Sequence record: PX068454.1
Length of the DNA stretch: 64,000 nucleotides
DNA from: a phage
Strand: one strand, 5' to 3'
The notes under the pieces were generated by a model. That model worked only from the letters and a program-made list of their open reading frames with translations. It did not search any database and was not told where the DNA came from. Of the stretch, positions 27,791-46,540 are shown one piece after another. The position numbers and the translations under genes were made by a program. Every line of letters starts with the position of its first letter. Positions within the stretch are counted from its first letter, which is position 1.

Positions 27791-30700
27791 TTAGTCATGA
27801 GACTCGTTCCAAGGTCCCTGGAAGCTAGAGTTTGAACGACTAACTATTACGGTTGGACAAGATATTGTAACCCCTGTCACACTTGACGTTGACCATGGTG
27901 TGTAAATCTCGACGATAATGTCTATAGTTTGTTCACCAAGACCTGTTATCCCTACCGCACACATGCCGTTGTTGTCGTTTCCGTACTTCTTGCCTGCAAG
28001 GATTTGATGTCCGGCTATCCAAACGTTAAGCTGGGAGCTGGCAAGAGTACCATTCAGTTTAAAGAAGAATGTTACGTTCTTACCCTGACCTGAAACGTTA
28101 TCTACATATCTCCACCTCCAACGGCAAACCCTTTGCTGGGAGTTGTATACTGGAGCACAATCTCCGTAAGTCCTGTGTGCAACAATCGCACCTTCGAACT
28201 GGTTAGCACGGATAACGGAAGCTTCTACACGTCCACGGAATGTACCTCCTGTTGCATCTATGGTTCCTCTAAAGCTACCATTGTTGGCATAAACATCTCC
28301 ACGGAAGGTGCCACTGGTAGCGTTAACTGCCCCTGTGAAGTTACCTGCACTAGCGTTGATGTTACCTTTCACCCACACATCCATAAACTGGGCGTGCCCG
28401 TTCTTGTTAATATACCAACCGTATTTGTGGTACCCATTGCCATCGTAGTTGTTTGACGAAATTTCTTGTGCGATCTTGGCAGATGAAATCGTCCCGTTCT
28501 CTATAAAAGCATCTTTCAAGAACGCTTGGTTGTTCTTGATTGCGAAAGCAAGGGTTGCTGTTCCATTTCCAGGGTTGTATACCGCAAAATTGTTTGCACT
28601 AACCATGAAGTAGGATTGAACTTGGCCTCCAGACCCTTCCATCCCCAACTGGATACCTGCAACATATTTATTCCCTGCGGAGTCTACCTGTATTTTTGTG
28701 CCCCATTGAGCATTTACTTTACCCTCTAAGTCGGTTACAGCCTTAGATGTTGTAGCTACTGCAGCCCTGATCTCGGACACATCCCCAACATCATCAATGA
28801 TCTCCTGCTTAGCAACAGCAAGTTCTTGACGAATAGCTGACGCTGTGCCGTTGATAAGGTCCACAGTAGCTTTGTTGGTATCGGAAATTGTAGCATCCAG
28901 CGCTGTTTTTGTGGAAGTCAGTTTTCCATCCAAAGCATCAATCGCCTGCTTGTTGGTAGAAATCTCCCCACGTGCAGAAGTTATCTGCTCTGACAGTGCA
29001 GATGTTTTCTGATTCAACAAGTCAGTGGTGGCCTTGTTGGTATTGGCAATCAAGGTGTTGAGGTCAGTTTTTGCGGTGGTTATCTTGCCATCCAGGGTGG
29101 TATAGTTTTTAGATACCGTCGCGTTTGTCTGACTGATCTTTTGATCCAGAGTTTCAGATGTCCTGTTCAAAAGATCCACAGTTGCCTGGTTAGTGCTCAA
29201 GATGCTTGCGTCAAGTTCTGTTCTCTGAGTATTGATCTTACCATCCAGAGTTTTATCTCCGGCTAAATACCCGCTCTCAACTCCCTCTATCTGCTCTACC
29301 AGCTCACCTTTGGCGGCAACCAATTTCTCATCTAAAGCCTCTGTCTTTTTGTTCAGAAGATCAGCAGTTGCTTTATTGGTTGTCTCGATCAGAGATGCCA
29401 GTCTGCCACTTTCAGTGTTCAGATCGTTGGTGAATTTGTTCTGTGCAGCAACAAGTTTCCTATCCAGCGCTGTAATGTTACCATTGACATCTTCAAACTT
29501 CTGAGTTGTTTCTGTAACTACCGCACCTATTCTGTCCCCAAGTTGTTGGAACGCTTCATCTACCCTACCATCCATGTACCTGTTAAGTTCTGTGACACGA
29601 TTTTCAACCTCTTCAATAGAGGAATCCAAAGTGCTCATCAACTCTTTATAAGTTTCTGTCTTTTTGAATTCAGCATCTATCTGAGGCATCAAATCCTCAA
29701 TAGAGGTATAGCAGCGTGCAGCGCATTCTACAAACTGAGAGCTACCAAAAGCGTTTGTGGTTCGAATATACCAATAATAAACCTTATCGTTCTGCAGACC
29801 TTCAGATGTCCAAGTCGAACCAACACCCATACGGGTGGCTTCTGAAGTAACGGTTGCATCACTAGTGTCTGGCAACCTTGTCATACCAGATGTCCAAAAG
29901 TCATACTGGGTGCTTACACTTGCTAAATCCCTGCTGTGTGGAATCAAGGTGATAGCAAAGTATCCTTGCTTAACCTCTACAGAAACAGGAGCTTCAGGTG
30001 CCTGAATGTTAAACTCGCAGTACGCTTCTGGAGATACACCACCTTTATAAGATGTTGCAACCACGGTTGCTGTGTATGACCCTTTGGTCAAGCCTTCTAC
30101 TCTGACAAACTGCTCAACTGTCTGTGCTGTCCAAACAATCTCTCCGTTCTTTCTTACCTGCACAATATTTTGAGCGTAAGTTCCAACGTTGTCCCAAGCC
30201 AAAACACCGTGAGTTACTTCCCCAGCTTGGAGAACGGAGTATCTGAAGTTTTGCGGTTGAGCTACACCGGATGGGGATATCGGAATATCTACATCGCCGG
30301 AATCCGGAAGTTGCCCTGTGGCATCATTCCACTCTTTAGCATCTTGACGAAGTTTTACCTTGACACCGCCCTTTTTGGTGAACTCCCATTCAAGAACCCT
30401 CATTTCTTGGCCCACTATACCAATACTTGGGAGATTCATTGTAACGTAACGGCCAGGTTTAAATTTAAAACCTCGCATATTGCAGGTGACTTCAATAATC
30501 CTGCCAGCTCTAGCACGTCTTAAAAATATTGCAGAAACACGCTGAGCTTGATAAGGGCTGGTAACAAAGCGGTAGTCTATATCGATTATCTTTCTTTCTC
30601 CATCCTTCTCTATCCACTCTGGGACAAACACTGATGGAAAATCTGTTTCAGAATACCCTTTGGTCGGACTGGTGAATCTGCCAGTTATTGTGTTGGATCT

Positions 30701-31630
30701 TTTGTCAAACGAGGCTTCCGGATAGATCTTAACCTCACCACAGACACAGTCCTCACTCAGTGTCATTGTTGCCGGACCATAATATGCACCTACCAGCAGT
30801 CCATACTTACCAGCTACATAGCTGAGATCTGCACCACAAGCTTTCAGCATTTCTGCCATAATACTTGCTGGGGCCTCATCCATATCGAACTCGCCATTAA
30901 TGGTGTAACGGCGCTCACTAGTTCCGTCCGCGTTTCTTACCGCCTCATCGCATATGTTAGCAGCCTCCTTGAAGGACTCCCAGTTGATGGTTTCGTCAGG
31001 ACATTTAAGGTACGTTCTTAAATAGTCTAGAATCACCAAGGCCGCGTTATTGGTATACACCTCTTTACTGATACGAGGATCATAGCATTTTTTACCAACC
31101 TTGACGAGTGTAACGTTTGGCAACCCAAAAGGGAACTTGTTAGGGTCAAACCTGAAGCTGGCACGTAGCCAACTGATCCCTCTACCTATCATGTCTGGTG
31201 ACCACGACGGGCAGTGTGTACCCATGAAAGGATCAGATGTTTTTCTGTCGTTATGTAGCTCCCACGATATCAAATCTCCATACGAGGAAATAGGATTACC
31301 GTCGATGAGTATATCTTCTATACCTTCCAGGGGATGATTGGCAAGAACAATAGCACAATGGAGGGTCCTGTCCCTGTCCTGCTCCAAAAACGCAAGTAAT
31401 CCAGATGTGCGTGTCTTCCCATACACTACAGAGCAAGGTGCAGCAGAAGATCTGAGAAGCTTTTGTCTATCTTGCTGACTTCTGTAAGATTTGTTGCCCT
31501 CAAAAATCTTATCCAGAGTTCTGGTGGTAACAGTGTTCAGGCTGTCAGCCAGAGCTGCCTTGGATGCGTTCCAGTCATAACTTGAAGATCTTGCAGAAGC
31601 AACGATGTTATCAATCATTGCAATTGGCAT
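27791..31630 (-). CDS. central tail fibre / host-specificity J-like protein with coiled-coil repeat region
   Basis: 1279 aa; N-terminal region resembles tip-attachment J-type proteins; tandem repeats LDGK...TNKAT.DLLN; C-terminal G(T/S)FRG repeats. Confidence 0.7.
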   Translation of the reverse strand: MPIAMIDNIVASARSSSYDWNASKAALADSLNTVTTRTLDKIFEGNKSYRSQQDRQKLLRSSAAPCSVVYGKTRTSGLLAFLEQDRDRTLHCAIVLANHPLEGIEDILIDGNPISSYGDLISWELHNDRKTSDPFMGTHCPSWSPDMIGRGISWLRASFRFDPNKFPFGLPNVTLVKVGKKCYDPRISKEVYTNNAALVILDYLRTYLKCPDETINWESFKEAANICDEAVRNADGTSERRYTINGEFDMDEAPASIMAEMLKACGADLSYVAGKYGLLVGAYYGPATMTLSEDCVCGEVKIYPEASFDKRSNTITGRFTSPTKGYSETDFPSVFVPEWIEKDGERKIIDIDYRFVTSPYQAQRVSAIFLRRARAGRIIEVTCNMRGFKFKPGRYVTMNLPSIGIVGQEMRVLEWEFTKKGGVKVKLRQDAKEWNDATGQLPDSGDVDIPISPSGVAQPQNFRYSVLQAGEVTHGVLAWDNVGTYAQNIVQVRKNGEIVWTAQTVEQFVRVEGLTKGSYTATVVATSYKGGVSPEAYCEFNIQAPEAPVSVEVKQGYFAITLIPHSRDLASVSTQYDFWTSGMTRLPDTSDATVTSEATRMGVGSTWTSEGLQNDKVYYWYIRTTNAFGSSQFVECAARCYTSIEDLMPQIDAEFKKTETYKELMSTLDSSIEEVENRVTELNRYMDGRVDEAFQQLGDRIGAVVTETTQKFEDVNGNITALDRKLVAAQNKFTNDLNTESGRLASLIETTNKATADLLNKKTEALDEKLVAAKGELVEQIEGVESGYLAGDKTLDGKINTQRTELDASILSTNQATVDLLNRTSETLDQKISQTNATVSKNYTTLDGKITTAKTDLNTLIANTNKATTDLLNQKTSALSEQITSARGEISTNKQAIDALDGKLTSTKTALDATISDTNKATVDLINGTASAIRQELAVAKQEIIDDVGDVSEIRAAVATTSKAVTDLEGKVNAQWGTKIQVDSAGNKYVAGIQLGMEGSGGQVQSYFMVSANNFAVYNPGNGTATLAFAIKNNQAFLKDAFIENGTISSAKIAQEISSNNYDGNGYHKYGWYINKNGHAQFMDVWVKGNINASAGNFTGAVNATSGTFRGDVYANNGSFRGTIDATGGTFRGRVEASVIRANQFEGAIVAHRTYGDCAPVYNSQQRVCRWRWRYVDNVSGQGKNVTFFFKLNGTLASSQLNVWIAGHQILAGKKYGNDNNGMCAVGITGLGEQTIDIIVEIYTPWSTSSVTGVTISCPTVIVSRSNSSFQGPWNESHD
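28825..29473 (-). repeat. in-frame tandem repeats encoding about four coiled-coil units of roughly 50 aa
   Basis: Protein residues about 720-935 of the J-like gene; DNA shows matching periodic similarity. Confidence 0.5.
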
Positions 31631-32067
31631 TAATACCTCCAGACATCAACAACAATAGAATCTTTCATGTCGAACATAAAGACCCCTTTATCACCTTTCG
31701 CCCAAATCTGGTTGTTCCAGAACACACCCGCGGTGAGTCCGTTCAGTCCTTCGAAAATAACAATATCCCCACGCTGAACCTGTTTAGGAGTGTCCAGTCG
31801 AGTCATAAAGAAATCAAAAATAGTAGGCAGGTGTGTGGTTTTGAAATGAAGCATGCACCATCTCTTGCTTTCCAACTCTGTTTTATACGTTCCTTCGAAG
31901 TTAGAAAGAAAATCTGTTCCGTATTGGGCATCAACACACTTAGCCGCAAAGGTGCAACAATCGTGGAATCCCCATTCAAAAGGTATGGTGGCCTCTTCGT
32001 CAAACACTTTCCACAACCTTTCTTGCCAGTCCACTAGACGAGGATGTGTGCTCATTAAACCTCCCAA
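31630..32067 (-). CDS. tail assembly protein, possible papain-like (NlpC/P60-type) fold
   Basis: 145 aa; GFHDCCTF candidate catalytic Cys, later His residues; immediately upstream of J-like gene. Confidence 0.4.
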   Translation of the reverse strand: MGGLMSTHPRLVDWQERLWKVFDEEATIPFEWGFHDCCTFAAKCVDAQYGTDFLSNFEGTYKTELESKRWCMLHFKTTHLPTIFDFFMTRLDTPKQVQRGDIVIFEGLNGLTAGVFWNNQIWAKGDKGVFMFDMKDSIVVDVWRY

Positions 32068-32621
32068 ATGATCGGGCGGCTCGCCACCTGATCCACATAT
32101 TTAAAAAATCTGTCGTTATCGTTTCTTGAGCTGTGGCTTTCCTCCGTGTACCGATAAGGAAAACCTCTTAACCAGCTGTTGAAGATGGAAGAGATGGATA
32201 TGGACAAAGCACTATTCTCTCCTGTCTGGATAGCCATATCTGTTATAAGGCCGTCAAACAAGCCATTAGTTGTGACAGGCAGACCATTCTCCATAGCGGT
32301 AATGTACAACGTGGCACGACAACCAGAATACTCCGTCTTCAGCAGATCACCCACATACTTAGGATCAAACCCGTTCAATGTTGCTACCACAGATCCGAAG
32401 TTGGTGGCATCTTTCTCAGACACAGCGGTCAATGTTGCTGATCCGCCTATCCCTATAAAATGTTGACCCTCAATTACTACAACACCAGTGCCTGAGCACA
32501 CCCTGACAGTACCTGTCGGTAGCTCCAGCTTTGCAGCAATTAAGATCTCAACACCATCAAGCTCTAGCTTTTCAAGAAATAAATTATCTAATGGCGCTCT
32601 GATCATCTTAGAAATCCTCAA
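32055..32621 (-). CDS. tail tip/assembly protein
   Basis: 188-aa ORF, overlapping junctions in tail operon. Confidence 0.5.
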   Translation of the reverse strand: MRISKMIRAPLDNLFLEKLELDGVEILIAAKLELPTGTVRVCSGTGVVVIEGQHFIGIGGSATLTAVSEKDATNFGSVVATLNGFDPKYVGDLLKTEYSGCRATLYITAMENGLPVTTNGLFDGLITDMAIQTGENSALSISISSIFNSWLRGFPYRYTEESHSSRNDNDRFFKYVDQVASRPIIWEV

Positions 32622-33198
32622 AGAAGTTGATAACTATATTATCACCTTTTTGCATAGCATCGACTTTTTGCTTAATTTTATAAATATCTCTGATATGGAA
32701 CCTACCCTTCGGGGATTGAGTTATTATCTTCATAGTGTCCCCTGCGGCAATAGGTTTTCTAAGTCTTGGAGATATGCTTATAACAGCAGACCCAACACCA
32801 TCACTACGCACTGGAGCTGTTACCACTTTCAATTCATCATTGACAGATATTTTATCCCCAGCTCTGGCTATGTCTCTGTTTGGCTCCCATCCGACCGTAT
32901 TCAAAAAATCGTCGTTGCCAGTAGGCCCAAGGGCGATTGGCTCATTAGCTGTTACTGAGTGACCGTAAGTTTTAATGAGAAAGATGTTCCCATCTTTATA
33001 CACCTGATCAACAAAGCTTTTAAGCTCTAGCAACTGTGACTCGCTGATATTGGAGACCGTCAAAGTGCCTTTCCAGTTAGGTGTGGCATAGGTTACTTTT
33101 TGCGTCTTACCTGTAAACGGACTTTTAAACGTAACAATATCTGCCAGCAGCTCCAATCTAATATCTGGAAGGTATCTAGGCCTTTCCCATAAAAACAT
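32608..33198 (-). CDS. tail protein
   Basis: 196-aa ORF. Confidence 0.5.
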   Translation of the reverse strand: MFLWERPRYLPDIRLELLADIVTFKSPFTGKTQKVTYATPNWKGTLTVSNISESQLLELKSFVDQVYKDGNIFLIKTYGHSVTANEPIALGPTGNDDFLNTVGWEPNRDIARAGDKISVNDELKVVTAPVRSDGVGSAVISISPRLRKPIAAGDTMKIITQSPKGRFHIRDIYKIKQKVDAMQKGDNIVINFFEDF

Positions 33199-33260: not shown

Positions 33261-33290
33261 CAAACAAAAAGCCCCCGCCGAAGCGAGGGC
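33261..33290 (-). terminator. rho-independent terminator, GAAG/UUCG-loop hairpin variant
   Basis: GCCCCCGCCGAAGCGAGGGC hairpin then T-rich tract on minus strand after fibre gene stop. Confidence 0.55.
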
Positions 33291-33297
33291 AAAACAG

Positions 33298-36200
33298 TTA
33301 CTTCAATTTCTCTTGCAATCCAGTAACAACCTCTGTCAATTTTTTAACCTGCTCCTCAAGGGCGGTTATTTTATCGTCCTGTTCCCTGCAAACCTGGACA
33401 AGCAAGCCTGTTACAGCTGCGTAGTCAACGTTATAGAACCTTTCCTCAGTCATTAAAGGAATGCCGTCTTGAGTAGGACCTTCTATTTCCTTCCTTTTCA
33501 CGAAAGATCCTACTGCCTCTGGCAATGCTTCCATAACCTCTTGAGCAATCACGCCTGCATAAGGCATACCATTCTCTTTCAAGGTGTAGGTATAGCCTTT
33601 CATCTTTCTAATTGCTTCCAGAGCGTTAGGTATGACCTCTATGTTATCCTTCAGGTCCCTATCGGAACTTTGACTAACAGTAGTACATTCTACCGTGCCG
33701 TTGACAGCAAAATATCTTGATTTAGCCTCATCTGCCTTAGCACCACAGTGGAATACCCAGCTGGCGACTGTTGAGTTATCACTTATCTGAAACTCCAGCA
33801 CATTCTTCCTATCTGCGCCATTACCCCAATAGTACAACCTACCTGTATTAGAAGGCATGTTGGAAGTGTTGGTAACATCCGTACCACCACCTGTGTGTAT
33901 TGTGAACTCCGGTTCAAGATTGGATCCTTGAGTTTTTAAAGTGATACCTTTACCACCAAGCTGCTGCCAATGGCCCCATGTGAAAACACCACCTATCGTT
34001 GTTCCATAACGCAGGAATTTTTCTCCAAGATATGTCGTATATTCCTGTACGCAACTCTCTGGAACGTTGGCATAGTTTCTGTAGACAACGAGAGTACCTG
34101 CCTGGGAGCATGGGTAGTTTTTATCAAGTGCGGCCTGAGCATTAGCCTCCTGATGATAAAAACCCTCTCTATCCCCTTTGTAGTCGTTAAGGTCATTAGT
34201 CCCCAGCCCTTGACCACGGTGCTGAATAACTTTGTTCCATGCCCTATGGTTACCACCCTCGATAGATCTGGTGTATAGCTGATCAAGGCGACCAGCCATT
34301 TGGAAGGCATAGTTTCCAGAAAACGCCACAGACAGCCCACCAACAACCATCGAACCTTCAGGTCCGTTGACATTGCCTGCCATTATTTTAGAAGGGTTGT
34401 TAGGACCAAACTGGTTGTTCCAGTCTGCACCAGTATGGCATACAAAACCACCTGGAGCTGAGAAAGTACCATCCTTGTTGAAGTTGTAGAATCTATGAGC
34501 TGTGCCTACAACATCGCGAACAATAACTTGACCAGCTTCCGGAGTAGATCTGAACTCTGCCTGGCCTTTGAGACCAGCACCATTACCGCATTTAGAGGTA
34601 AACGTACCGTTAGTCAGATCCTCTGTCCCATCAGATGCACACTGGAATCCTGCATTAGAGAATAACGCCTTTCTAGGACTGCCGTAGCACAAATAGTCAA
34701 GACCGTCTGCCCATAGCTCGACTTTTGGCATATTCATTTTGCTCATCACAGCATAGCGTTCAGCAGTGCCTATATAGTGCCACTGTGTGCCGCCGCCAGT
34801 GTAGAACCCTGAAGTACCTTTAAAATCAACAATAGGTCTGGTATTGGTGTTGTTATCTCCAAGAATGGCAAGATTCAAATCTGCTGACTGAAGAGGTGCA
34901 ACGAACTTAACCCCATCCTGATTGTCTGTTACAGAGCCAACCTGGTAATCTTGCTCTCTGGTAAACACTTCGACAACATTTCTACTTGCGTATATGCTGA
35001 CAGGGAAAGCACGAGCCTCTACATAGAAAGCAACATACTCTTGTTTACCCCTTGTTGGAGCAACCATCCCAAGAAGTGCTTTTTCATTCTGGTAGAAATT
35101 TACTACCCCGTAGAAAGCGTCCCCTCTGTCTGTCCAACCACCAGTTCTATAGTGACACTGTAAGGTAGCACAGTTCATAGGGTCACCGCCGGATGACGAT
35201 CTGGTAACTATGGTAATATCAGTGCCAGTTGCTGGAGCATAGTACGGATCTGTTCTAACGATAATTGGGTAGTATTTCCCATCTTCCATCCCTGCGGTTC
35301 TTGGCAGTGTTAAGAAGTCTTTTACACCTGCTGCTATAGGAACTTTGAACAGATTCTGAGCATCTGCTAAAGTTGTGGCTCCAGTACCACCTGCGGCGTG
35401 AGGTAAAGGTTCCCACTTGGCCTTCCGGTTGTTATAAACACCCCATTCCAAACTGCCGTTACCGGATTCGTCCATCCCGCCATCCCAGATAACCATCTTG
35501 GCGGCTTTCTTGGACCCCCAAAAGCCTCTTTCTGCTCCTGAACTACGGATCCACTCCCCAAGTCCCCAGTTTGTCAGCTGACCAGTAAGATCCCCAACCT
35601 GCATATATTTAGGACAGTCTAATACACCGTCCTCGCGGAAACCTAAATATCTATGAGTTTCAGATCCTTTTGCACCTTTGTGGAGGTGGATTGTCAACCA
35701 AGCCTTATTGTCGTTTCTTACCTCAGAATAGATCCTATAACCATGCTCAAGAATACCATCAGTATTATATTTATCTCCATGGAGAATACCTGAGGCCGAT
35801 TTAACATCTCCAGAGTATTGAGCTAAGTAAAGGTGCCCGAAGGCTGGCGAGTTGTTTTTACCAAGGCCGATATGAGATCTGAAAGTATCATCGTTACGAG
35901 GTCTGACCATCGGCTGCCATGCAGTCCACTGGTTTGTGTTGGCCTGATAGGTTCTCAAATACCAAACATCTACGTTAGAAAATGGATAGTATTCCTGACG
36001 ACAACCTGTACCGCCGTTAGCATTGTTCTGCCAAACAATCAAGTGACCAGCACCAGAACCTGCAGGGTAACCATTTGCCTCAGTTGCATAAGCAGTCATC
36101 GGCTGGTAGTATACGCCATCCTGATTACCAGTCAAGTTATTGATATTGAAATTTGGCTCAAGGGCTGCACGTTGCTTATAGAAAGCACCGATATTGATAC

Positions 36201-37098
36201 GGACTCCAGCGGCATCTCTAGCCCCTGTGCCGCCTTGCTCTATAGCAAGAGGTTGCCACGAAGCTGTTTGTTGGTTCCACATACCCCAACGGCCTGTTGC
36301 GTCAAGCTGCAAGTACCCTGCCGTGTTTAAATCATCTCCAGCACGGATAACTGTTCTTGTTGGGTTATTTGCCTCTAGGCGTTTAAATTCATCACGAAGT
36401 GCTATTCTTTTTGTTGTTGCTACACCGTTGGTTACTGCAATGGTATACATAGCTCCTGAGGTAGCGCCACGGAAAATACCATCAACAGTTGTAGTATCAC
36501 GACGAGATACCACACCGTTCAGAAATTTTTCACCAGCTGCTACAGAAGGGTAGTTGGTGGTTCTTCCCTCTTCAATAACTGCAGGGCCAACAAAGTTATC
36601 AAGGTGAATAACATCGCCTACGGTGTGCACTGTACCAAAATCTACACGCTGTGCAAGTGCTTTAGCATCGTTAGCTGTCTGAACAGTAACATCCATTACA
36701 TCCTGGACAGACTGCCCTTCGGCTGTCATGATCATAGATGCGCCAATGGTAGATTCCAGCTCCTCCCTTAAGGACGGGTCAGTATATACCATCCATGCAG
36801 CGTCAGTAATCCCACCATCGGAGTACGGTGAAGACAGTGCAGGAACAGTGTGTGGAAATTCGCCTTTCCAACGCAGGTAGAGGTCTTCCTCTTCGAAGTA
36901 GGCAAAATCCATTGGGCCGTTTAACTTACCACCTTCCTTAAAGGAGATTACATGAGAAACAGTCCCATCAACATGGACAACATCGCCAATTTTTACACGA
37001 CGGGTCAGGTCTGGTTGTTGAACAACCAGGTAATCATCCTCTGTCACTGCGGTAGTGGCAGGAAGAGATTCAATTCTGACAACTTTAATATCAGCCAT
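33298..37098 (-). CDS. long tail fibre with C-terminal S74-type intramolecular chaperone (self-cleaving) domain
   Basis: 1266 aa; C-terminal SDRDLKDNIEVI...GYTYTLKENG...GVIAQEV matches peptidase S74 auto-chaperone signature; N-terminus paralogous to 39734..40402. Confidence 0.8.
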   Translation of the reverse strand: MADIKVVRIESLPATTAVTEDDYLVVQQPDLTRRVKIGDVVHVDGTVSHVISFKEGGKLNGPMDFAYFEEEDLYLRWKGEFPHTVPALSSPYSDGGITDAAWMVYTDPSLREELESTIGASMIMTAEGQSVQDVMDVTVQTANDAKALAQRVDFGTVHTVGDVIHLDNFVGPAVIEEGRTTNYPSVAAGEKFLNGVVSRRDTTTVDGIFRGATSGAMYTIAVTNGVATTKRIALRDEFKRLEANNPTRTVIRAGDDLNTAGYLQLDATGRWGMWNQQTASWQPLAIEQGGTGARDAAGVRINIGAFYKQRAALEPNFNINNLTGNQDGVYYQPMTAYATEANGYPAGSGAGHLIVWQNNANGGTGCRQEYYPFSNVDVWYLRTYQANTNQWTAWQPMVRPRNDDTFRSHIGLGKNNSPAFGHLYLAQYSGDVKSASGILHGDKYNTDGILEHGYRIYSEVRNDNKAWLTIHLHKGAKGSETHRYLGFREDGVLDCPKYMQVGDLTGQLTNWGLGEWIRSSGAERGFWGSKKAAKMVIWDGGMDESGNGSLEWGVYNNRKAKWEPLPHAAGGTGATTLADAQNLFKVPIAAGVKDFLTLPRTAGMEDGKYYPIIVRTDPYYAPATGTDITIVTRSSSGGDPMNCATLQCHYRTGGWTDRGDAFYGVVNFYQNEKALLGMVAPTRGKQEYVAFYVEARAFPVSIYASRNVVEVFTREQDYQVGSVTDNQDGVKFVAPLQSADLNLAILGDNNTNTRPIVDFKGTSGFYTGGGTQWHYIGTAERYAVMSKMNMPKVELWADGLDYLCYGSPRKALFSNAGFQCASDGTEDLTNGTFTSKCGNGAGLKGQAEFRSTPEAGQVIVRDVVGTAHRFYNFNKDGTFSAPGGFVCHTGADWNNQFGPNNPSKIMAGNVNGPEGSMVVGGLSVAFSGNYAFQMAGRLDQLYTRSIEGGNHRAWNKVIQHRGQGLGTNDLNDYKGDREGFYHQEANAQAALDKNYPCSQAGTLVVYRNYANVPESCVQEYTTYLGEKFLRYGTTIGGVFTWGHWQQLGGKGITLKTQGSNLEPEFTIHTGGGTDVTNTSNMPSNTGRLYYWGNGADRKNVLEFQISDNSTVASWVFHCGAKADEAKSRYFAVNGTVECTTVSQSSDRDLKDNIEVIPNALEAIRKMKGYTYTLKENGMPYAGVIAQEVMEALPEAVGSFVKRKEIEGPTQDGIPLMTEERFYNVDYAAVTGLLVQVCREQDDKITALEEQVKKLTEVVTGLQEKLK

Positions 37099-37134
37099 TC
37101 TTTCTCCTGAAAGGGGGCAAACAGCCCCCCTATG

Positions 37135-39732
37135 TTAAAGGTACAATCCACGGTATTGAGCATAAAGGCCCAGACCGCGAAGGATTTCGCCAGAGTGATA
37201 GCCAACCGGATCAGAAACTGCCCAGCAGCCGTTTAAAATATTATCCCCATTAATGAAGTGGTGCTTTTGCAGTAGCTTCACACAGGCTTCCACAACAATA
37301 TCTATTTGAGGTATTGTCTCTGAATACCCGCACAGACCTAGCCAGCAGCAACCTGCAAGCCATTCACCTACCACCCACATCCTGTCTCCTCTGTCCTGAT
37401 AAGAATATCCCCCCGAGGTGTTAAAGTCTGTAGGCAGATTTCCTGAATGAGATGACTGGAATCTGTTGAGGAACCATGCCCATTTCTGGCAGAACAGGAA
37501 TAGTCTTTCATCAACAGGTTCTTTATGTTTCTTGAGCTCATATATTGTGCGGCACGCAGCAACAAAAGATCTTGACTGGAGCTTAGAGTTATCTACCATC
37601 TCCCACCAACCAGTCAACCCTTCATTACCTCTTTGCCATACATAACGTGAGGCAACTGGACCCTCTGTCTTAAATGTATTATTATACCAGACTTGAGCGT
37701 CATACAGAAAGCCTATTGTATTTGACAATCTATGGCGATCTATGTTTTCTGCACCCATGCAGTAGACTGCTGGGTATTGCATGCCTGGGTAGGGCCAATT
37801 TGGCCTTTCCTCTAAGAGATAGTTTTCCTTATCTATCACCTTTCCGGCAGGGAACACACCTGGTGTGTGCCTGTATGCACCTTGCTTGTAGTTTCTGACA
37901 TAGCAATCGCCAACCTTAGCGGTTGATTCTGTCTTGCTTGCCATCCACACGCTAAACCAGATTAGATAAGCATCCCTATCTGCAATATAGAATTGCGGCA
38001 GCGTGTTGACGCAATACAGATCAAACAAGCCATTACCTATCTGCCTGTCGCTTAGGCTGAAATCTACAGAGGTGAGTCCCTTAGGATTAGCAAAGAAAGG
38101 TTTAATCTCTTCTTCAGTGTGATGAGGTTGTGTCGGATCTAGTTTGAAATCTCCTAGAGTAAGAGTTTCTGTTATCCATTGTCCATTAGTGGCATATAGA
38201 TCAGCATACCATAACCACCTGTCTTTGTCAAGAAATTTGACCCTTACCATCTCATCATCTGATCGATAAGTTACTGAGTTTAAAGAAATCTCTCTTCCAA
38301 AATTGAAAGTTACTTTGCCTCTTGCTATATTACAACGGGTGAAGTTGTCAGAGTGGTTGTAAATGTCAGTATCGTACTGCATACTAACACTGGCACCACC
38401 GCTCACGGCAATATTTTCCTCTTTAGGTAAGAGGTACGGATTACCGTCTTTACCAACTACCTCTACGAAATCAGTAACCTTGGCAACTATTTCTGTTACC
38501 TCTGCCCCTCCAAAAGGAACCCCTATCCTGTACTGTTTTTTGTTATTGTTGCCATCATTAAGGATGAAATGTGGCTGGAACAGAACCCCTTCTCCTCCGA
38601 AATTCATAACAATTTCAGCATCTCTGCCTATTTTATATGTAGTCCCTTTTTGAATTATTTCGCAAGGCTGGCGTGCGTTCATCCTAAAATTGATATACCC
38701 GTCACTGTCCCTACTCATGACAGGAACTGTTCCTGCAACAAGACAAGTACCATCTGTGAACGGTGCCTTAATCAACGTGGTCTTTCTAAACAGTTTGTCG
38801 TAGGCGTTTATGTCACTGAAATTAAGCAACTTGTTGTAAGACTGTTTAAACGCGGTGTAATACTTTTCTTCACCTGTCAAGGTGTAGAGTTGATAACAAG
38901 CGTCACACCACATTTCTTCCCCGTCCAACTCTGGGGCCTGATTATCTGCAACCACGTTTATAGGATTTACAATTACAGGGGATCCAGCAGGTATCACCGA
39001 TCCACCCTGCTCTTGAGGTAATCTCACACAATAGGTTACCTTGTGGCTGCCTGTAACACCCTTATCTTGTAATTGGATTGTGCCGAACTCTATAGACGTA
39101 TGCCCACTGTCGGCTATGCTCCCGTTAGCCCAATAGCGGTTACCATCCCATGCTATGTACCACTCAACCCACCAACTTAATCCGGATGTTGTCCAATCTG
39201 GGTTAGCATCTGTGCCACCGTAAACATCAGAGTCTACAGTGTTTCTTCCTAACACACCGTTATACGCTTGGAATGCCTTGTCCAGGTATTCCCCCCATGT
39301 CGGAGCTCCCGCTGGGATTTTTCCTCTACCGTTGGTAAAAGACACCACCACATCTTTAAACCCACCGTGTGATGGAACCCCATCTGTGGATAGAGGGTAG
39401 TGGGACAATCTTTGCATTTTACTTTCTACGGCATATGCACCCAGAAGATGACTATTGTAAGCTTCCCAAGCATCTTTTGCCCTATCCAGATAGAAATCGC
39501 TTTTCGATGCCCTGTATGCTTCAATGTATCCCAGAATCAACACAGCTTGGGACTCATGCATTGCCCAATCGTTATTTATCTTATTACCTGCCCACCCTGC
39601 AGCTATAAGACCATCAGGGTTTACTAGCTTATTTTGTGTAGGTGTGTTGGTAATACCTGTGTTGTTATCGAGGCACTTCCTGTGCCCCTCAATCATCTGA
39701 AATACGTTATCAATGTTGTGTTGAATACGCAT
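37135..39732 (-). CDS. tail-associated protein, candidate polysaccharide-degrading (alpha/alpha-toroid-like) enzyme
   Basis: 865 aa; helical N-terminal region; own SD AGGAG; follows anchor-domain gene by 1 nt; enzymatic assignment is tentative. Confidence 0.6.
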   Translation of the reverse strand: MRIQHNIDNVFQMIEGHRKCLDNNTGITNTPTQNKLVNPDGLIAAGWAGNKINNDWAMHESQAVLILGYIEAYRASKSDFYLDRAKDAWEAYNSHLLGAYAVESKMQRLSHYPLSTDGVPSHGGFKDVVVSFTNGRGKIPAGAPTWGEYLDKAFQAYNGVLGRNTVDSDVYGGTDANPDWTTSGLSWWVEWYIAWDGNRYWANGSIADSGHTSIEFGTIQLQDKGVTGSHKVTYCVRLPQEQGGSVIPAGSPVIVNPINVVADNQAPELDGEEMWCDACYQLYTLTGEEKYYTAFKQSYNKLLNFSDINAYDKLFRKTTLIKAPFTDGTCLVAGTVPVMSRDSDGYINFRMNARQPCEIIQKGTTYKIGRDAEIVMNFGGEGVLFQPHFILNDGNNNKKQYRIGVPFGGAEVTEIVAKVTDFVEVVGKDGNPYLLPKEENIAVSGGASVSMQYDTDIYNHSDNFTRCNIARGKVTFNFGREISLNSVTYRSDDEMVRVKFLDKDRWLWYADLYATNGQWITETLTLGDFKLDPTQPHHTEEEIKPFFANPKGLTSVDFSLSDRQIGNGLFDLYCVNTLPQFYIADRDAYLIWFSVWMASKTESTAKVGDCYVRNYKQGAYRHTPGVFPAGKVIDKENYLLEERPNWPYPGMQYPAVYCMGAENIDRHRLSNTIGFLYDAQVWYNNTFKTEGPVASRYVWQRGNEGLTGWWEMVDNSKLQSRSFVAACRTIYELKKHKEPVDERLFLFCQKWAWFLNRFQSSHSGNLPTDFNTSGGYSYQDRGDRMWVVGEWLAGCCWLGLCGYSETIPQIDIVVEACVKLLQKHHFINGDNILNGCWAVSDPVGYHSGEILRGLGLYAQYRGLYL

Positions 39733-39733
39733 C

Positions 39734-40402
39734 TTAGATAGCTCCTGCGATAATCAGTGCCCCGTACCAAGTTAACCCGTTGTCGTAGGTTTCCAACTTG
39801 AAAATGTCTGTTGCACCAGCTGTAAATGTTAGGATAGGATCTCTTCCGTAGGACCATTTAACATTACCAGGCCAATAGACTTTGTTGCCGCCAGAGGTCT
39901 GAGTAATGCATACGGTTATAGTTCTCGCCACCCCTTCAAGACCTTCTGTTTGATTTTCAAAAGAGATTGTGGTATTTGAAGTTAGTCGAACCTTAAAGGT
40001 ATCCGCAACTTCAAGATCCATATCAAGCTGACCACCGATAGATCCGTAATCAACTATTCTGCCAGAAGAAGTTGCAGCAAGCTCACCAAAAACAGACCAG
40101 GCGTTTGCAGACACACCCCCAGCACCCTCTACAGTGGAGTCTGGGAGGATTATTTTAGGATAATCCCCGTTCCACGTGTAGTAGCGCTTAGTTTCTGGAT
40201 CATAAGCAAAGTCCTTCTTGCTCTTAAGATAACCACCCTCTGTGAAATAGACTATCTTAGTAATGCTAAGATCGTTGACAACATCGTCAATCTTAGCCTT
40301 TCTTGTCCCATCAGTCTGGTTGACAACCAAGAAGTCATCACTCAGGACTGTTTCTGCATCTTCAAGATCTGGAATTGGTATTGTAGGATAAGCTACAGCC
40401 AT
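39734..40402 (-). CDS. fibre N-terminal anchor-domain protein
   Basis: 222 aa; N-terminus (DDFLVVNQTDGTRKAKIDDVV...FTEGG...DFAY) aligns with N-terminus of the 1266-aa fibre. Confidence 0.6.
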   Translation of the reverse strand: MAVAYPTIPIPDLEDAETVLSDDFLVVNQTDGTRKAKIDDVVNDLSITKIVYFTEGGYLKSKKDFAYDPETKRYYTWNGDYPKIILPDSTVEGAGGVSANAWSVFGELAATSSGRIVDYGSIGGQLDMDLEVADTFKVRLTSNTTISFENQTEGLEGVARTITVCITQTSGGNKVYWPGNVKWSYGRDPILTFTAGATDIFKLETYDNGLTWYGALIIAGAI

Positions 40403-40411
40403 GATTTCTCC

Positions 40412-41128
40412 TTAGTTAACATCAATAGCACGACCAGACTGGTTGGCAATAGCCTCATCATTGGAGGTAGCAATAACACCAGAGTATTCGCGCTCATCTG
40501 GAGCAAGAGTCCAGGTATTGCGGTTAATGGTTTGTTCTGCATCGGTCATCAGCAGATCTTTATCCTGAGTCAACAGAGAGCCTACAGGGATAGGGTTTTC
40601 CATCTCAGGACCAGCATACTGGTTCCACCATGTGGCATCTCCGGTTCTAGGCAATCTGAAGTTGATCAGGTAGTACAGTTTATTGGCCCACTTAATCCAA
40701 CCTTCATCATCACAGAGAGAGGTTGTCCCAGAATCAGGCTGTGGGTAGGTAAACTGATCAAGACCTACGAAAGCCAGCCTTACAATCTCGTTCTCTTTGG
40801 TAACAACCTCAAAGAACGCTTGGTATGTTCTCGATCTTCGATCCATGGTAGACTGGAAGTTTACGATGTTTAGCACATCCGGCTCTTGTCTTGCCACTTC
40901 CATAATCTTGTTATCAAGAACAGTCTTCATGACCTTCTTACTGAGAAAGTCCATATAAGGGAAGCCAAACAACTCGTCAAAGTACCAGCTCCCCTTCCAC
41001 GTATTAAACCTCATCCACAAGCGCTGGCGCAGACTTACCTGGTTTGAATCTATCAACTCAAGACCTTTGTCTATCGCCAAATCGCCTGTCTGTGGGTCCA
41101 TCAATATATCACTATAAAGCGTAGCCAT
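40412..41128 (-). CDS. baseplate protein
   Basis: 238-aa ORF in baseplate block; position-based. Confidence 0.5.
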   Translation of the reverse strand: MATLYSDILMDPQTGDLAIDKGLELIDSNQVSLRQRLWMRFNTWKGSWYFDELFGFPYMDFLSKKVMKTVLDNKIMEVARQEPDVLNIVNFQSTMDRRSRTYQAFFEVVTKENEIVRLAFVGLDQFTYPQPDSGTTSLCDDEGWIKWANKLYYLINFRLPRTGDATWWNQYAGPEMENPIPVGSLLTQDKDLLMTDAEQTINRNTWTLAPDEREYSGVIATSNDEAIANQSGRAIDVN

Positions 41129-41140
41129 GAAAGCCCTCTA

Positions 41141-41818
41141 TTAGTGCGGTCCACTTGTCTCGCCATCAGGGCAAGAGTGGGTATGACCTTTATATTCTGC
41201 ATAGAATGAATCCAAATCCACACCAGCAGCAGTTATAATTCTACCAGATGGGTCTATTGTGGCACCATTCATTCTGATATTTCCATCCACAGCAGCTCGC
41301 AAATTGGCAGCACCGTTAGTGAAAGAAAACTCCCCGCTGCTGTCGCACCGTAATGTCCCACCCGGTGTTTGAAGCTCAAAATCTCCAGAAGGTGTCAGTT
41401 TAAAATAGACCTTATCATTCCATAACTCTACGTTATCAGGATCGATCTGTAAAGCGTTTGAGTCTGAATGAACAGAGGTTATTGCCCACCCCGGAAACAG
41501 ACCGTGAGTTTGTTGATCGTCGTTATTGTTTTCATTTCTCTCTGAAAACTGCAATCCTACAACATCTCCAGCCTTAATAGGGAGTGTTAACCTTGCCTTT
41601 CCGCTGTTTGCAGACATCACCTGAATTGGAACGTCATAGATAAGAGGGTATCTCTCTACATCCCCGTCATCAAACGTGGTTTCAGCAATTGGCTGCACGG
41701 CTGCAGAAGGGATACTGTAGTCTACACTGACAACTCTGGCCCTGATACTGGTGTGATAGTCCCTCATTATTTTTTCTATGAAGGATCTTACAGCAGCATC
41801 TTTCCTATTTATTGCCAT
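41141..41818 (-). CDS. baseplate spike protein (P2 gpV / Mu gp45-like)
   Basis: 225 aa; C-terminal KGHTHSCPDGETSGP resembles the HTH...PGG.T..P tip motif. Confidence 0.55.
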   Translation of the reverse strand: MAINRKDAAVRSFIEKIMRDYHTSIRARVVSVDYSIPSAAVQPIAETTFDDGDVERYPLIYDVPIQVMSANSGKARLTLPIKAGDVVGLQFSERNENNNDDQQTHGLFPGWAITSVHSDSNALQIDPDNVELWNDKVYFKLTPSGDFELQTPGGTLRCDSSGEFSFTNGAANLRAAVDGNIRMNGATIDPSGRIITAAGVDLDSFYAEYKGHTHSCPDGETSGPH

Positions 41819-44203: not shown

Positions 44204-46540
44204 TTACCAAAGGTCGGTAGACATGAAGTTGATATCTTTATTGTTCTCCCACTCAAGTTTTGCATCAAATATTTTGTTAAACTCGCCCTCATCTATTGAA
44301 ATCGTGATTTTCCCATCACTGATCTCTAAAGGTAGCATTTCCATAGTTCTTAATTGAGAAGCAAAACCAGAGCCACCCGGCAACGGAAGAGTCCCGCCCG
44401 GTAAGGTGTCCAAAGGATTAACAAACCCGTTACCTCCCGATATGATATCTTTGCGAATCATATCGCTGATAGTATCCAGCTGCTGATTTCTTTCACTTAG
44501 TGGGTTGTAACGGTCATTAAATAATTCCCCGGCGCTTAGTATTGTACCGATAATGCCCAGCTTACCGAGCAGACCAACTTTGCCACCAGGTGTCTTGAGG
44601 CCACCCCCACCTTTTCCTGCCGGAGCTCCACCACCAGATCCTTCTGTAGTAGCGGCACCCGCTGCTCCAGCTGCACCCCTTAGAGAGTTAAGGAATTTAA
44701 AGGTTTTTACAAGCATGGATGCCATGACAAAACCTTTTGTTAGGGCATTGACTACCAGTATGATGGCAGCAGCAAACCCTGCCCATTTAGCATAGCTAAA
44801 GGTGTCATGAAGCTCTTCAGAATATTCCTTCGTCTTAGCTGTTATGAATCCCCATTTAATCCCCCATTCAAGGAAAAACATGCGGATCTTGACTATGGTG
44901 TTGTTTAGCTCACCAACTACCCAGTTAAGGCCTCTCACAAACCCGCTAACAAAATCACCAGAGGCATCCCACACAAATTGCAGAGTCTCACCAGTGCGGA
45001 TTAGTGTATAATAGAACTCTGTTAGTTCGTCGGACCAACGGGTGAACAGTTTCTGACGAGTCAGTTCGATGAAGGTTTTCAGTCTGTTTTCTGCCAGCAC
45101 GTTAGACTTCTGCATTCTTTCATAACCAGCTGCAGATGCCTCGTTCATGTACTTAGCCACATACTTCATGATCTTGGCTGTTTTAACCTCACCTTTCTTC
45201 ATCATGTCCATGAACTGATCCATGGAGAGTTCAGAAAGACCAAAAGCCTCTTTGGTGGCCTTGATAAAAGGTTCGTATGCACCGGGCAATGCTTCAGCAA
45301 GTTGTTGCTTCAGTTCTTCGGACATTACTTGTCCCTTGCCAAGCATCTGTTGGATAGCCATAATACCGCGCTGGTATTTTACCTCATCGGCACCATAAGC
45401 AGCAGCATACTGTGAGTATGCAGAAAACAGCTCATGCACTTCCTGATTTGTCATCTGGTTTTTGGCGTTTACCGACATCTGGGCGTAACCTTGAAGACCA
45501 GATTTGAGATCAAAACCAAGACGCATAGCCTCTTGCTGGACAAACGCAACCTCACTGTTGGCTTTGTTTGGATCTCCAGTAACAGCAGTAAGAGCAGCAC
45601 TTGCCCCCTCCATCATGTGACCGGATCTGTTAACCGCAGCAAATCCAGAAAAAGCCGTATACGCAGCTGTTGCATTAATAACAGATCTACGTAAGTCTCT
45701 CATGGCATCGCCTAGTGTAAGCGTTTGGCTGGTGGCGCTTTTAAACCCAGACTGCAGCGCTGACAGGTGGGCGTTAAAGGTTGACTTCTTCATCTCCCCG
45801 CGAGCAAACCTGGACTCTAACTCTGAGTATCCTGGCAAGCTTCCACGGAATCCGGCCCCATACTTGGCAGAAAGTCTTATCGCGGAGTTGTAGAGGTGGG
45901 TTCTCCTTGCCTCACGATCCGACATAAGCTTATTATCCATACCAGCTTTACTGTCTCTTCTTAGCTGTCTATGATAACGATTCATAGCGGCTGTCTGAGC
46001 TTTCACAAGGTTAGGGTCGGAAGCCACACCACCCATATTAGGGTTACCGGGGATATACTTGAAAGATTTGGCATTAGCCAAAACTCTTGCCTTAGGTGCC
46101 TTATAACCACCGTAAGACACTGGTGCAGATTTGGCAGCCTTTTTGGCCTCTTTAGCTTGCTGCTGGTAGAACTTACGCATCCTAGCCATTTCTGGATTTT
46201 TAGCGGTAAGATTACCTACAGCTTGTTTACGTCTCGCATTCTCCCTACGTTCTATTGCAGCCCTTACTGCAGCCTCTTTCTTGGCCTGTGCTACGCTCTC
46301 TCTGTGCAGTTTAGCATTTGCCTGAGATTGCTGTCTGGCAACCCGCTGCATTGTCTGCTGGGTTTTAACAGCTACCGCCTGCCATCTGCTCATGGGGTTG
46401 GCTGAGTTAAAATCTTCGCCCAGTTTCCTGAACTCCCTCCCAATACTGCGAATTTTCTCTACAGCTTTTTTGTAGGAGGAGTTCTCTATCTCAAAGCCAA
46501 TCTTGTTGACTGTTGTGGCAACTATTTTGTTTGTAGCCAT
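44204..46540 (-). CDS. tail tape measure protein
   Basis: 778 aa, A/Q/K/R-rich helical, Gly-rich C-terminal segment, downstream of chaperone pair. Confidence 0.7.
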   Translation of the reverse strand: MATNKIVATTVNKIGFEIENSSYKKAVEKIRSIGREFRKLGEDFNSANPMSRWQAVAVKTQQTMQRVARQQSQANAKLHRESVAQAKKEAAVRAAIERRENARRKQAVGNLTAKNPEMARMRKFYQQQAKEAKKAAKSAPVSYGGYKAPKARVLANAKSFKYIPGNPNMGGVASDPNLVKAQTAAMNRYHRQLRRDSKAGMDNKLMSDREARRTHLYNSAIRLSAKYGAGFRGSLPGYSELESRFARGEMKKSTFNAHLSALQSGFKSATSQTLTLGDAMRDLRRSVINATAAYTAFSGFAAVNRSGHMMEGASAALTAVTGDPNKANSEVAFVQQEAMRLGFDLKSGLQGYAQMSVNAKNQMTNQEVHELFSAYSQYAAAYGADEVKYQRGIMAIQQMLGKGQVMSEELKQQLAEALPGAYEPFIKATKEAFGLSELSMDQFMDMMKKGEVKTAKIMKYVAKYMNEASAAGYERMQKSNVLAENRLKTFIELTRQKLFTRWSDELTEFYYTLIRTGETLQFVWDASGDFVSGFVRGLNWVVGELNNTIVKIRMFFLEWGIKWGFITAKTKEYSEELHDTFSYAKWAGFAAAIILVVNALTKGFVMASMLVKTFKFLNSLRGAAGAAGAATTEGSGGGAPAGKGGGGLKTPGGKVGLLGKLGIIGTILSAGELFNDRYNPLSERNQQLDTISDMIRKDIISGGNGFVNPLDTLPGGTLPLPGGSGFASQLRTMEMLPLEISDGKITISIDEGEFNKIFDAKLEWENNKDINFMSTDLW

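Follow-up and report, generated by a model that had tools for sequence, protein, structure and literature searches.

Our comparative analysis of a 64,000-nucleotide stretch of phage DNA (sequence record PX068454.1, hereafter the window), whose source is a Vequintavirus, that is an rV5-like myophage of E. coli, suggests that three neighbouring genes encode two lateral appendages with a shared type of anchor. One would consist of a 222-amino-acid (aa) adaptor carrying an 865-aa cargo protein, and the other of a 1266-aa fibre that ends in a Peptidase_S74 chaperone domain. We put the probability of this reading at roughly 0.62. In the proposed arrangement both appendages would dock through one kind of N-terminal module, an attachment peptide of ~45 aa with a Tail_spike_N domain behind it. 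Anchored to the baseplate, probably as a short trimer, the 222-aa protein would use its conserved C-terminal β-domain to hold the anchorless 865-aa protein, which is predicted to form a split (α/α)6 barrel like those of glycoside hydrolases (GH) and would most likely bind or cleave a conserved surface glycan. The second appendage would be an L-shaped fibre similar to T5 pb1, in which the S74 domain would aid folding of the trimer and then cut itself at Ser1145 to expose a variable receptor-binding tip. What we observe directly is how the genes are laid out, their homologies, the strictly syntenic pair, the predicted fold and orthologues present in virions; from these we infer both that the 865-aa protein docks physically on the C-terminal domain and that the appendage proteins are trimeric.

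The three open reading frames, all on the minus strand, encode the 222-aa adaptor or short fibre (39734..40402), the 865-aa tail protein (37135..39732) and the 1266-aa lateral tail fibre of the L-shaped type (33298..37098), and they lie precisely where the initial annotation of this DNA had placed them. The junction it described, with a 1-nt gap and a separate Shine-Dalgarno sequence for the 865-aa gene, likewise holds: the 222-aa gene ends in TAA at 39736-39734, a single G follows at 39733 and the ATG begins at 39732, with the AGGAG (39742..39746, minus strand, read directly from the sequence) located nine bases upstream of this ATG, within the last bases of the 222-aa gene. The 222-aa protein is identical to rV5 gp43 (100%), while the 865-aa protein and the fibre share 99.3% and 88.2% identity with rV5 gp42 and gp41, respectively, and the rV5 genes have the same order and the same position after the sheath-initiator gene. 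When compared with more than 110 Vequintavirus genomes the 7.1-kb block of three genes shows 92-99% nucleotide identity. In phi92 the 222-aa protein has its counterpart in gp140 and the 865-aa protein its homologue in gp141. Both the 222-aa protein (phrog_7760, E 8e-120) and the fibre (phrog_6578) match PHROG families labelled tail fiber.

Support for the adaptor-plus-cargo reading comes from comparative evidence. By tblastn we found 536 phage records that match the 222-aa protein and 525 that match the 865-aa protein, with an almost identical host profile. In nine of nine annotated loci the large homologue starts at a distance of -11 to +1 nt from the end of a gene of 157-270 aa; these loci belong to the Autographiviridae phages Kaonashi and Atoyac10, Philippe (Schitoviridae), ciri (Rosemountvirus), phiEa104 (Ounavirinae), ESCO37 (Phapecoctavirus), the jumbo phage PBECO4 (Asteriusvirus), Vibrio phage K386 and Salmonella phage PMBT28. 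At E values of 1e-17 to 1e-28, all of their small genes carry the 222-aa protein's C-terminal domain; their N-terminal parts are unrelated between lineages. The same layout is found in phi92 (gp140-gp141), ISAO8, SeKF_13 and ECO319P1, as well as in 40/40 evaluable IMG/VR loci, a count that leaves aside four further loci ending at a contig edge. Carriers of the pair thus far span at least 8 lineages, tails of the myovirus, podovirus and probably siphovirus types, and genomes from 41 kb to 348 kb. In the T7-like versions the N-terminus of the small protein is the T7 gp17-type domain Phage_T7_tail (PF03906), and in Autographiviridae the gp17 slot, flanked by internal virion protein D and the holin, is taken up by the pair. 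Large homologues begin directly with a conserved helical region and have no anchor, so the T7-like large protein would appear to have no other evident route onto the tail. The arrangement is that of an adaptor complex, in which the first protein bears an N-terminal anchor (PF18668, or PF03906 in Autographiviridae) and the second, anchorless, is encoded immediately downstream. The swappable anchor module proposed in the initial annotation is borne out insofar as the anchor does vary by lineage between PF18668 and PF03906, but the conserved portable unit is instead the C-terminal domain together with the large protein. Our literature search found no description of the pair as a conserved unit, which is not proof that none exists. 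We also noted a metagenomic protein of 293 aa (P0067) in which the C-terminal domain (E 7e-21) follows the first ~195 residues of the large family, the reverse of the usual order; it may be a recombinant or an assembly chimera.

Searches with the 222-aa protein by tblastn revealed that only its C-terminal half (aa ~110-222) is widespread. This domain (aa 110-222; 39737..40075, minus strand), which we propose as the docking platform for the 865-aa protein, has no match to a Pfam family or to a PDB sequence. It includes an Asp-box-like motif, TYDNGLTW (39737-39800, minus strand), on which the label ‘sialidase domain protein’ given to this gene in BASEL genomes probably rests. We rejected a sialidase function for the 222-aa protein, given that the motif is single and that the Pfam BNR family reached E 0.055 in just one of nine C-terminal domains. 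The AlphaFold model of the 222-aa protein is best matched by the Pa223 capsid spike (Foldseek E 3.8e-5) and, weakly, by the N-terminal assembly domains of CBA120 TSP4; these matches would fit a short trimeric spike but do not decide between roles for the C-terminal domain.

The AlphaFold model of the 865-aa protein places helices at residues 59-319 and 654-861 on either side of a β insert at 330-615, and is predicted to represent a split (α/α)6 barrel with β-rich inserts, the fold that defines the six-hairpin glycosidase superfamily. The N-terminal helical part (aa 59-319; 38776..39558), assigned from the AlphaFold2 secondary structure and weak profile matches, has a β insert of its own at ~aa 120-240. 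The β-rich insert (aa 330-615; 37888..38745) is the best-predicted part, with a predicted local distance difference test score (pLDDT) of about 65-88, and the C-terminal helical part (aa 654-861) follows at 37150..37773, all on the minus strand. The ‘helical enzyme-like N-terminal region’ recognised earlier is therefore only partly right: the helices at 59-319 are indeed predicted, and so is an enzyme-like fold, but helices are also found at 654-861 and the split barrel is not an N-terminal domain. The protein has no Pfam family and no PDB sequence relative. Its family profile gives weak matches, restricted to the same superfamily (GH76, cellobiose 2-epimerase and the helices of GH88), and against PDB the best match is E 7e-4 over ~30 residues. 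Among 29 relatives, which apart from one at 56% are 23-33% identical to the window protein, GH matches below threshold were seen in three members for GH76 (best E 0.0034) and in two for GH127, and the sequence alignment shows E60, D270, Q680, R721 and E849 to be near-invariant and Q62 invariant. An exhaustive HMMER scan of 1.84 billion representative proteins yielded just 92 relatives, and we consequently regard the family as rare. Some of these relatives (P0028, P0019 and P0017) bear extra modules, namely the N4 gp65-like non-contractile tail sheath (PF23844/PF23845), Gly_rich_2 and RCC1 repeats. A glycosidase activity of the 865-aa protein would be in keeping with its modelled fold.

Several results weigh against the adaptor-plus-cargo reading. 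The models of both proteins are of low confidence, with a mean pLDDT of 45 for the 222-aa protein and 60 for the 865-aa protein, a consequence of shallow alignments (the homologue searches returned only 4-5 relatives each). Among the 92 family representatives there is no natural-order fusion that unites the C-terminal domain with the large protein. A mirror-tree comparison of the domain with the large protein gave an overall r of 0.81, but among 591 distant pairs r was ~0; the correlation is driven by close relatives, and a signal of co-evolution beyond linkage is therefore absent. Moreover, two phages, Microcystis phage Mel-JY34 and Pseudomonas phage DT01, encode the C-terminal domain with no large protein accompanying it. 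In the rV5 genome paper (PMC3606486), Table S3 explicitly marks ‘MS evidence’ (mass spectrometry) for gp41 only. For the 865-aa protein no CAZy or Pfam family rose over threshold, which leaves it outside the recognised GH families, and no catalytic residues could be assigned.

Some of these points would agree with a 222-aa protein that is an autonomous short fibre or spike, with the C-terminal domain as its receptor-binding knob, in which case the 865-aa protein would enter the virion via another baseplate protein and the synteny would reflect co-regulation or a shared target. The domain sits at the very C-terminus, as fibre knobs do, and the spike of the Pa223 capsid is itself trimeric, with a segment for attachment at its N-terminus and a knob at its C-terminus; the absence of covariation among distant pairs and the two phages that lack the large protein point the same way. 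We nevertheless consider this unlikely, because the pair is adjacent at every locus checked, across unrelated tail types, and because a 270-aa protein would then be the sole fibre in the T7-like gp17 slot, where the large protein lacks a gp17-type anchor of its own. Both exceptions, furthermore, have a candidate adhesin next to the domain. In Mel-JY34 (locus L057, 4027-5663) the gene that follows encodes a Gly-rich protein of 288 aa, and in DT01 (locus L060, 4195-6704) an unassigned 396-aa protein is followed by a ConA-like lectin. These neighbours are what a generic docking tip with alternative cargo would be expected to have, although such an arrangement equally fits an autonomous knob.

It is also conceivable that the 865-aa protein is not structural, and that its role is that of a chaperone or assembly factor serving the small fibre, or of an enzyme that is loosely attached or freed at lysis. 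Chaperones are often encoded directly downstream of fibre genes, and gp42 is without a mass spectrometry flag in the rV5 table. However, rV5 gp41-43 are listed among the proteins from total phage proteomics, and the virion proteome of phage S144 holds both partners, the small one as ORF16 (21 kDa) and the large homologue as ORF17 (111 kDa), the latter with 25 peptides and 33% coverage in purified virions. In addition, a 97-kDa (α/α)6 barrel with β-domains is unlike known fibre chaperones, and some homologues are fused to tail modules such as the N4 gp65-like sheath domains. We therefore regard a non-structural role as very improbable.

Adaptor and cargo could, on the other hand, be correctly assigned and the barrel still be catalytically inactive, serving purely as a glycan-binding, receptor-binding module. 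The lack of a GH family over threshold and of assigned catalytic residues would be in line with this, and (α/α)6 barrels are also found in non-hydrolytic epimerases, terpene cyclases and complement proteins. Against it stands the near-invariance, at the sequence level, of the acidic and polar residues listed above, and on balance we hold an inactive barrel to be somewhat unlikely.

The claim that the first ~100 residues of the fibre are paralogous to the N-terminus of the 222-aa protein was upheld: by BLASTP fibre residues 7-105 align with residues 8-105 of the small protein at 38% identity over 99 residues (E 3e-18), and Pfam places Tail_spike_N (PF18668) in both, at 40.9 and 41.0 bits versus a cut-off of 25. 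In the 222-aa protein the module consists of the attachment peptide (aa 1-48; 40259..40402, by phmmer) and Tail_spike_N (aa 51-105; 40088..40252, Pfam E 2.1e-10), and in the fibre the peptide and Tail_spike_N (Pfam E 2.2e-10) together make up aa 1-107 (36778..37098), all on the minus strand. Across the 321 six-frame open reading frames of the window the module was found in just these two (phmmer E ~1e-18, with the next best at E >0.4). A PDB sequence search with the Tail_spike_N regions returned CBA120 TSP1, TSP3 and TSP4 and the N-regions of other tailspikes, and from what is known of the family these anchors would attach to the particle or to a further tail protein. Four proteins have their first ~45 residues in common (phmmer full-sequence E 4.6e-8 to 6e-3), namely the 222-aa protein, the fibre, and gp140 and the endosialidase gp143 of phi92, while gp140 and gp143 lack the Tail_spike_N domain seen in both window proteins and in phi92 gp151. 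Two genera thus keep the pattern of one N-terminal peptide on both a small adaptor and an appendage that bears S74, which suggests that adaptor and appendage dock at equivalent sites. Similarly, Cronobacter phage GAP31 has the same anchor at the start of the gene that follows its large homologue and is annotated as a colanic-acid-degrading protein, an arrangement consistent with a reusable anchor.

The fibre itself conforms to what was first claimed for its C-terminus. A hidden Markov model search matched Peptidase_S74 (PF13884) at residues 1145-1196 (Pfam E 7.1e-15, 55.5 bits versus a cut-off of 22), and the start of the domain contains the Ser-x4-Lys motif SSDRDLKDNI, which supplies Ser1145 and Lys1150 and aligns with SSDRRIKKDI of S16 gp37 (PDB ID 6F45). 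The domain forms the last 122 of the 1266 residues (aa 1145-1266; 33301..33666, minus strand, assigned by Pfam and motif alignment), including a heptad-rich C-terminal helix that aligns to the MYRF domain (PDB ID 7DC3), and autocleavage would be expected from these features. A look in the rV5 mass spectrometry file for six gp41 peptides, controls as well as peptides of the C-terminal domain, returned none of them. K1F endosialidase and T5 pb1 likewise have a C-terminal S74 domain with the Ser/Lys motif. The likeness to endosialidases that had been drawn earlier is real for the chaperone domain but does not go beyond it, as the window fibre has no endosialidase catalytic domain. Homology of its body to T5-like phage fibres supports its assignment as a T5 pb1-like L-shaped fibre: over most of its length it is 35-38% identical to the fibres of T5-like phages and of siphovirus WildeMaa, and by tblastn residues 168-1261 share 37% identity with T5-like Kenya-K41 and residues 183-1261 match SP01.

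Identity to rV5 gp41 is 100% over the first 200 aa and 96-100% over residues 1-800, but over residues 901-1200, taken in blocks of 100 aa, it is down to 69%, 46% and 76%, and here rV5 carries a different allele. Phages nomine and Alma keep only aa 1-1046 or 1-999 of the fibre, with the last 220-270 residues replaced. This pattern along the fibre indicates that anchor and shaft are fixed and that the tip before the S74 domain is the exchangeable host-range part, and the variable distal region (aa ~900-1144; 33667..34401, minus strand), delimited by the drop in identity, is likely the receptor-binding tip. The BASEL paper lists the gene as one of three allelically variable fibre genes, in agreement with a variable tip. 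At fibre residues 289 and 570 we noticed GGTGA motifs (…EQGGTGARDAAGVRINIGA… and …AAGGTGATTLADAQNLFKV…) that resemble fibre segment junctions and may mark recombination boundaries.

Parts of this picture were already known, namely the genes, the S74 domain and the N-terminal likeness of gp43. The rV5 genome paper (Kropinski et al. 2013, PMC3606486) had assigned PF13884 and the name ‘L-shaped tail fiber protein’ to gp41, which makes the S74 part of our results routine, and noted that the gp43 N-terminus resembles that of the P22 tailspike; gp43 and gp42 were neither linked there nor described as a unit. What goes beyond existing annotation, and is modestly novel, is the portable adaptor-barrel cassette together with the shared-anchor pattern. 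In phi92 (Schwarzer et al. 2012; Chen et al. 2026, PMC13450770) the pair is found at the same position, after gp139. Here gp140 (157 aa) consists of the N-terminal peptide and the C-terminal domain and, unlike the window 222-aa protein, has no Tail_spike_N, and the large homologue gp141 (958 aa) shows ~35% identity in phi92-like phages. The S74-bearing gp143, which has its N-terminal peptide in common with gp140, is an endosialidase spike rather than an L-shaped fibre, and gp142 is inserted between the pair and gp143, with no such insertion in the window.

N-terminal-anchored proteins that carry a separately encoded enzyme, with modules exchanged horizontally, are familiar from G7C gp66/gp63.1, CBA120 TSP1-4, the K1E/K1-5 adaptor and KP32-type systems, and PF18668, the domain found in the window 222-aa protein, was defined on CBA120 TSP1 and G7C gp66. 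Compared with the G7C, CBA120, K1-5 and KP32 systems the carrier in the window is minimal, and its cargo is predicted to be an (α/α)6 barrel rather than a β-helix spike. In T2 and S16 the C-terminal tip of the fibre gp37 holds a distal binding protein, gp38, from the next gene, as we propose for the pair, and the C-terminus of S16 gp37 also has an S74-like motif that aligns with the window fibre. However, gp38 is a small polyglycine adhesin and not a 97-kDa barrel, and gp37-gp38 have no sequence relation to the C-terminal domain. An Alteromonas module described as a fibre plus chaperone cap (PMC10579305) was considered as the same system and rejected, since its chaperone is small and S74-like.

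We tentatively extend these findings to a broader proposal, to which we give slightly less than even odds: the C-terminal domain and the (α/α)6-barrel protein may form a self-contained, horizontally mobile host-recognition cassette that fits any tail type by exchange of only the ~40-160-aa N-terminal anchor of the small protein. The phi92 pair gp140-gp141 would then be fibre II or the arm of fibre I, and in rV5-like phages the shared anchor would let the cassette dock next to the S74 fibre. Both the BASEL paper and the phi92 cryo-electron microscopy paper (Chen et al. 2026, PMC13450770) describe the assignment of genes to fibres in these phages as unclear, and in the latter fibre II was not identified and gp140 is among several fibre-like candidates; we accordingly put forward gp140-gp141 as a candidate for fibre II. 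Phages of the rV5-like and phi92-like groups are common therapeutic candidates with a broad host range, and an adaptor-cargo pair would offer a concrete assignment for one of their appendages. It would also mark a family of virion-borne proteins, predicted to be (α/α)6 barrels, that is distinct from the usual β-helix depolymerases, and would suggest an engineering rule whereby the cargo could be transferred from one phage chassis to another by giving the small protein a different N-terminal anchor.

The three genes lie within a contractile-tail baseplate locus in which every gene is on the minus strand. The tape measure protein gene (44204-46540) comes first in the order of the locus, followed by those for the tube initiator, plug and hub, the spike (41141-41818) and the sheath initiator (40412-41128), which precedes the three-gene block. 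After the block is a set of Dit-like and J-like genes (27791-33198), a siphovirus-style tail-tip gene set inside a myovirus baseplate locus. Its members are a Dit-like protein of 196 aa (phrog_1302), a 188-aa protein (phrog_2048), a DUF6950 protein of 145 aa and a λ J-like protein of 1279 aa that combines a long coiled-coil with the domains Phage_Tail_Tip and Ig_J_second.

Immediately past the stop codon of the fibre gene a consensus scan, by pattern match alone, reported a terminator-like GC-rich hairpin with a T-run (33271..33290, minus strand), comprising an 8-bp stem with 7 GC pairs and a TTTTTGTTTG tail, that may close the three-gene block. A second GC-rich hairpin (~37113-37129, minus strand; GGGGGC-TGTTT-GCCCCC, then TTT) lies between the stop of the 865-aa gene and the AGGAG of the fibre gene. 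The terminator scan made no call at this position; the hairpin could give the pair and the fibre different expression levels. Lastly, 18 to 23 GenBank records of the MG0656xx series, deposited as ‘Campylobacter phage’ (A116, D#, A135, C3 and others), share 99-100% identity with these genes, and other ‘Campylobacter phage’ records of the series match phAPEC8-like phages, such that the Campylobacter host label of these records looks doubtful.

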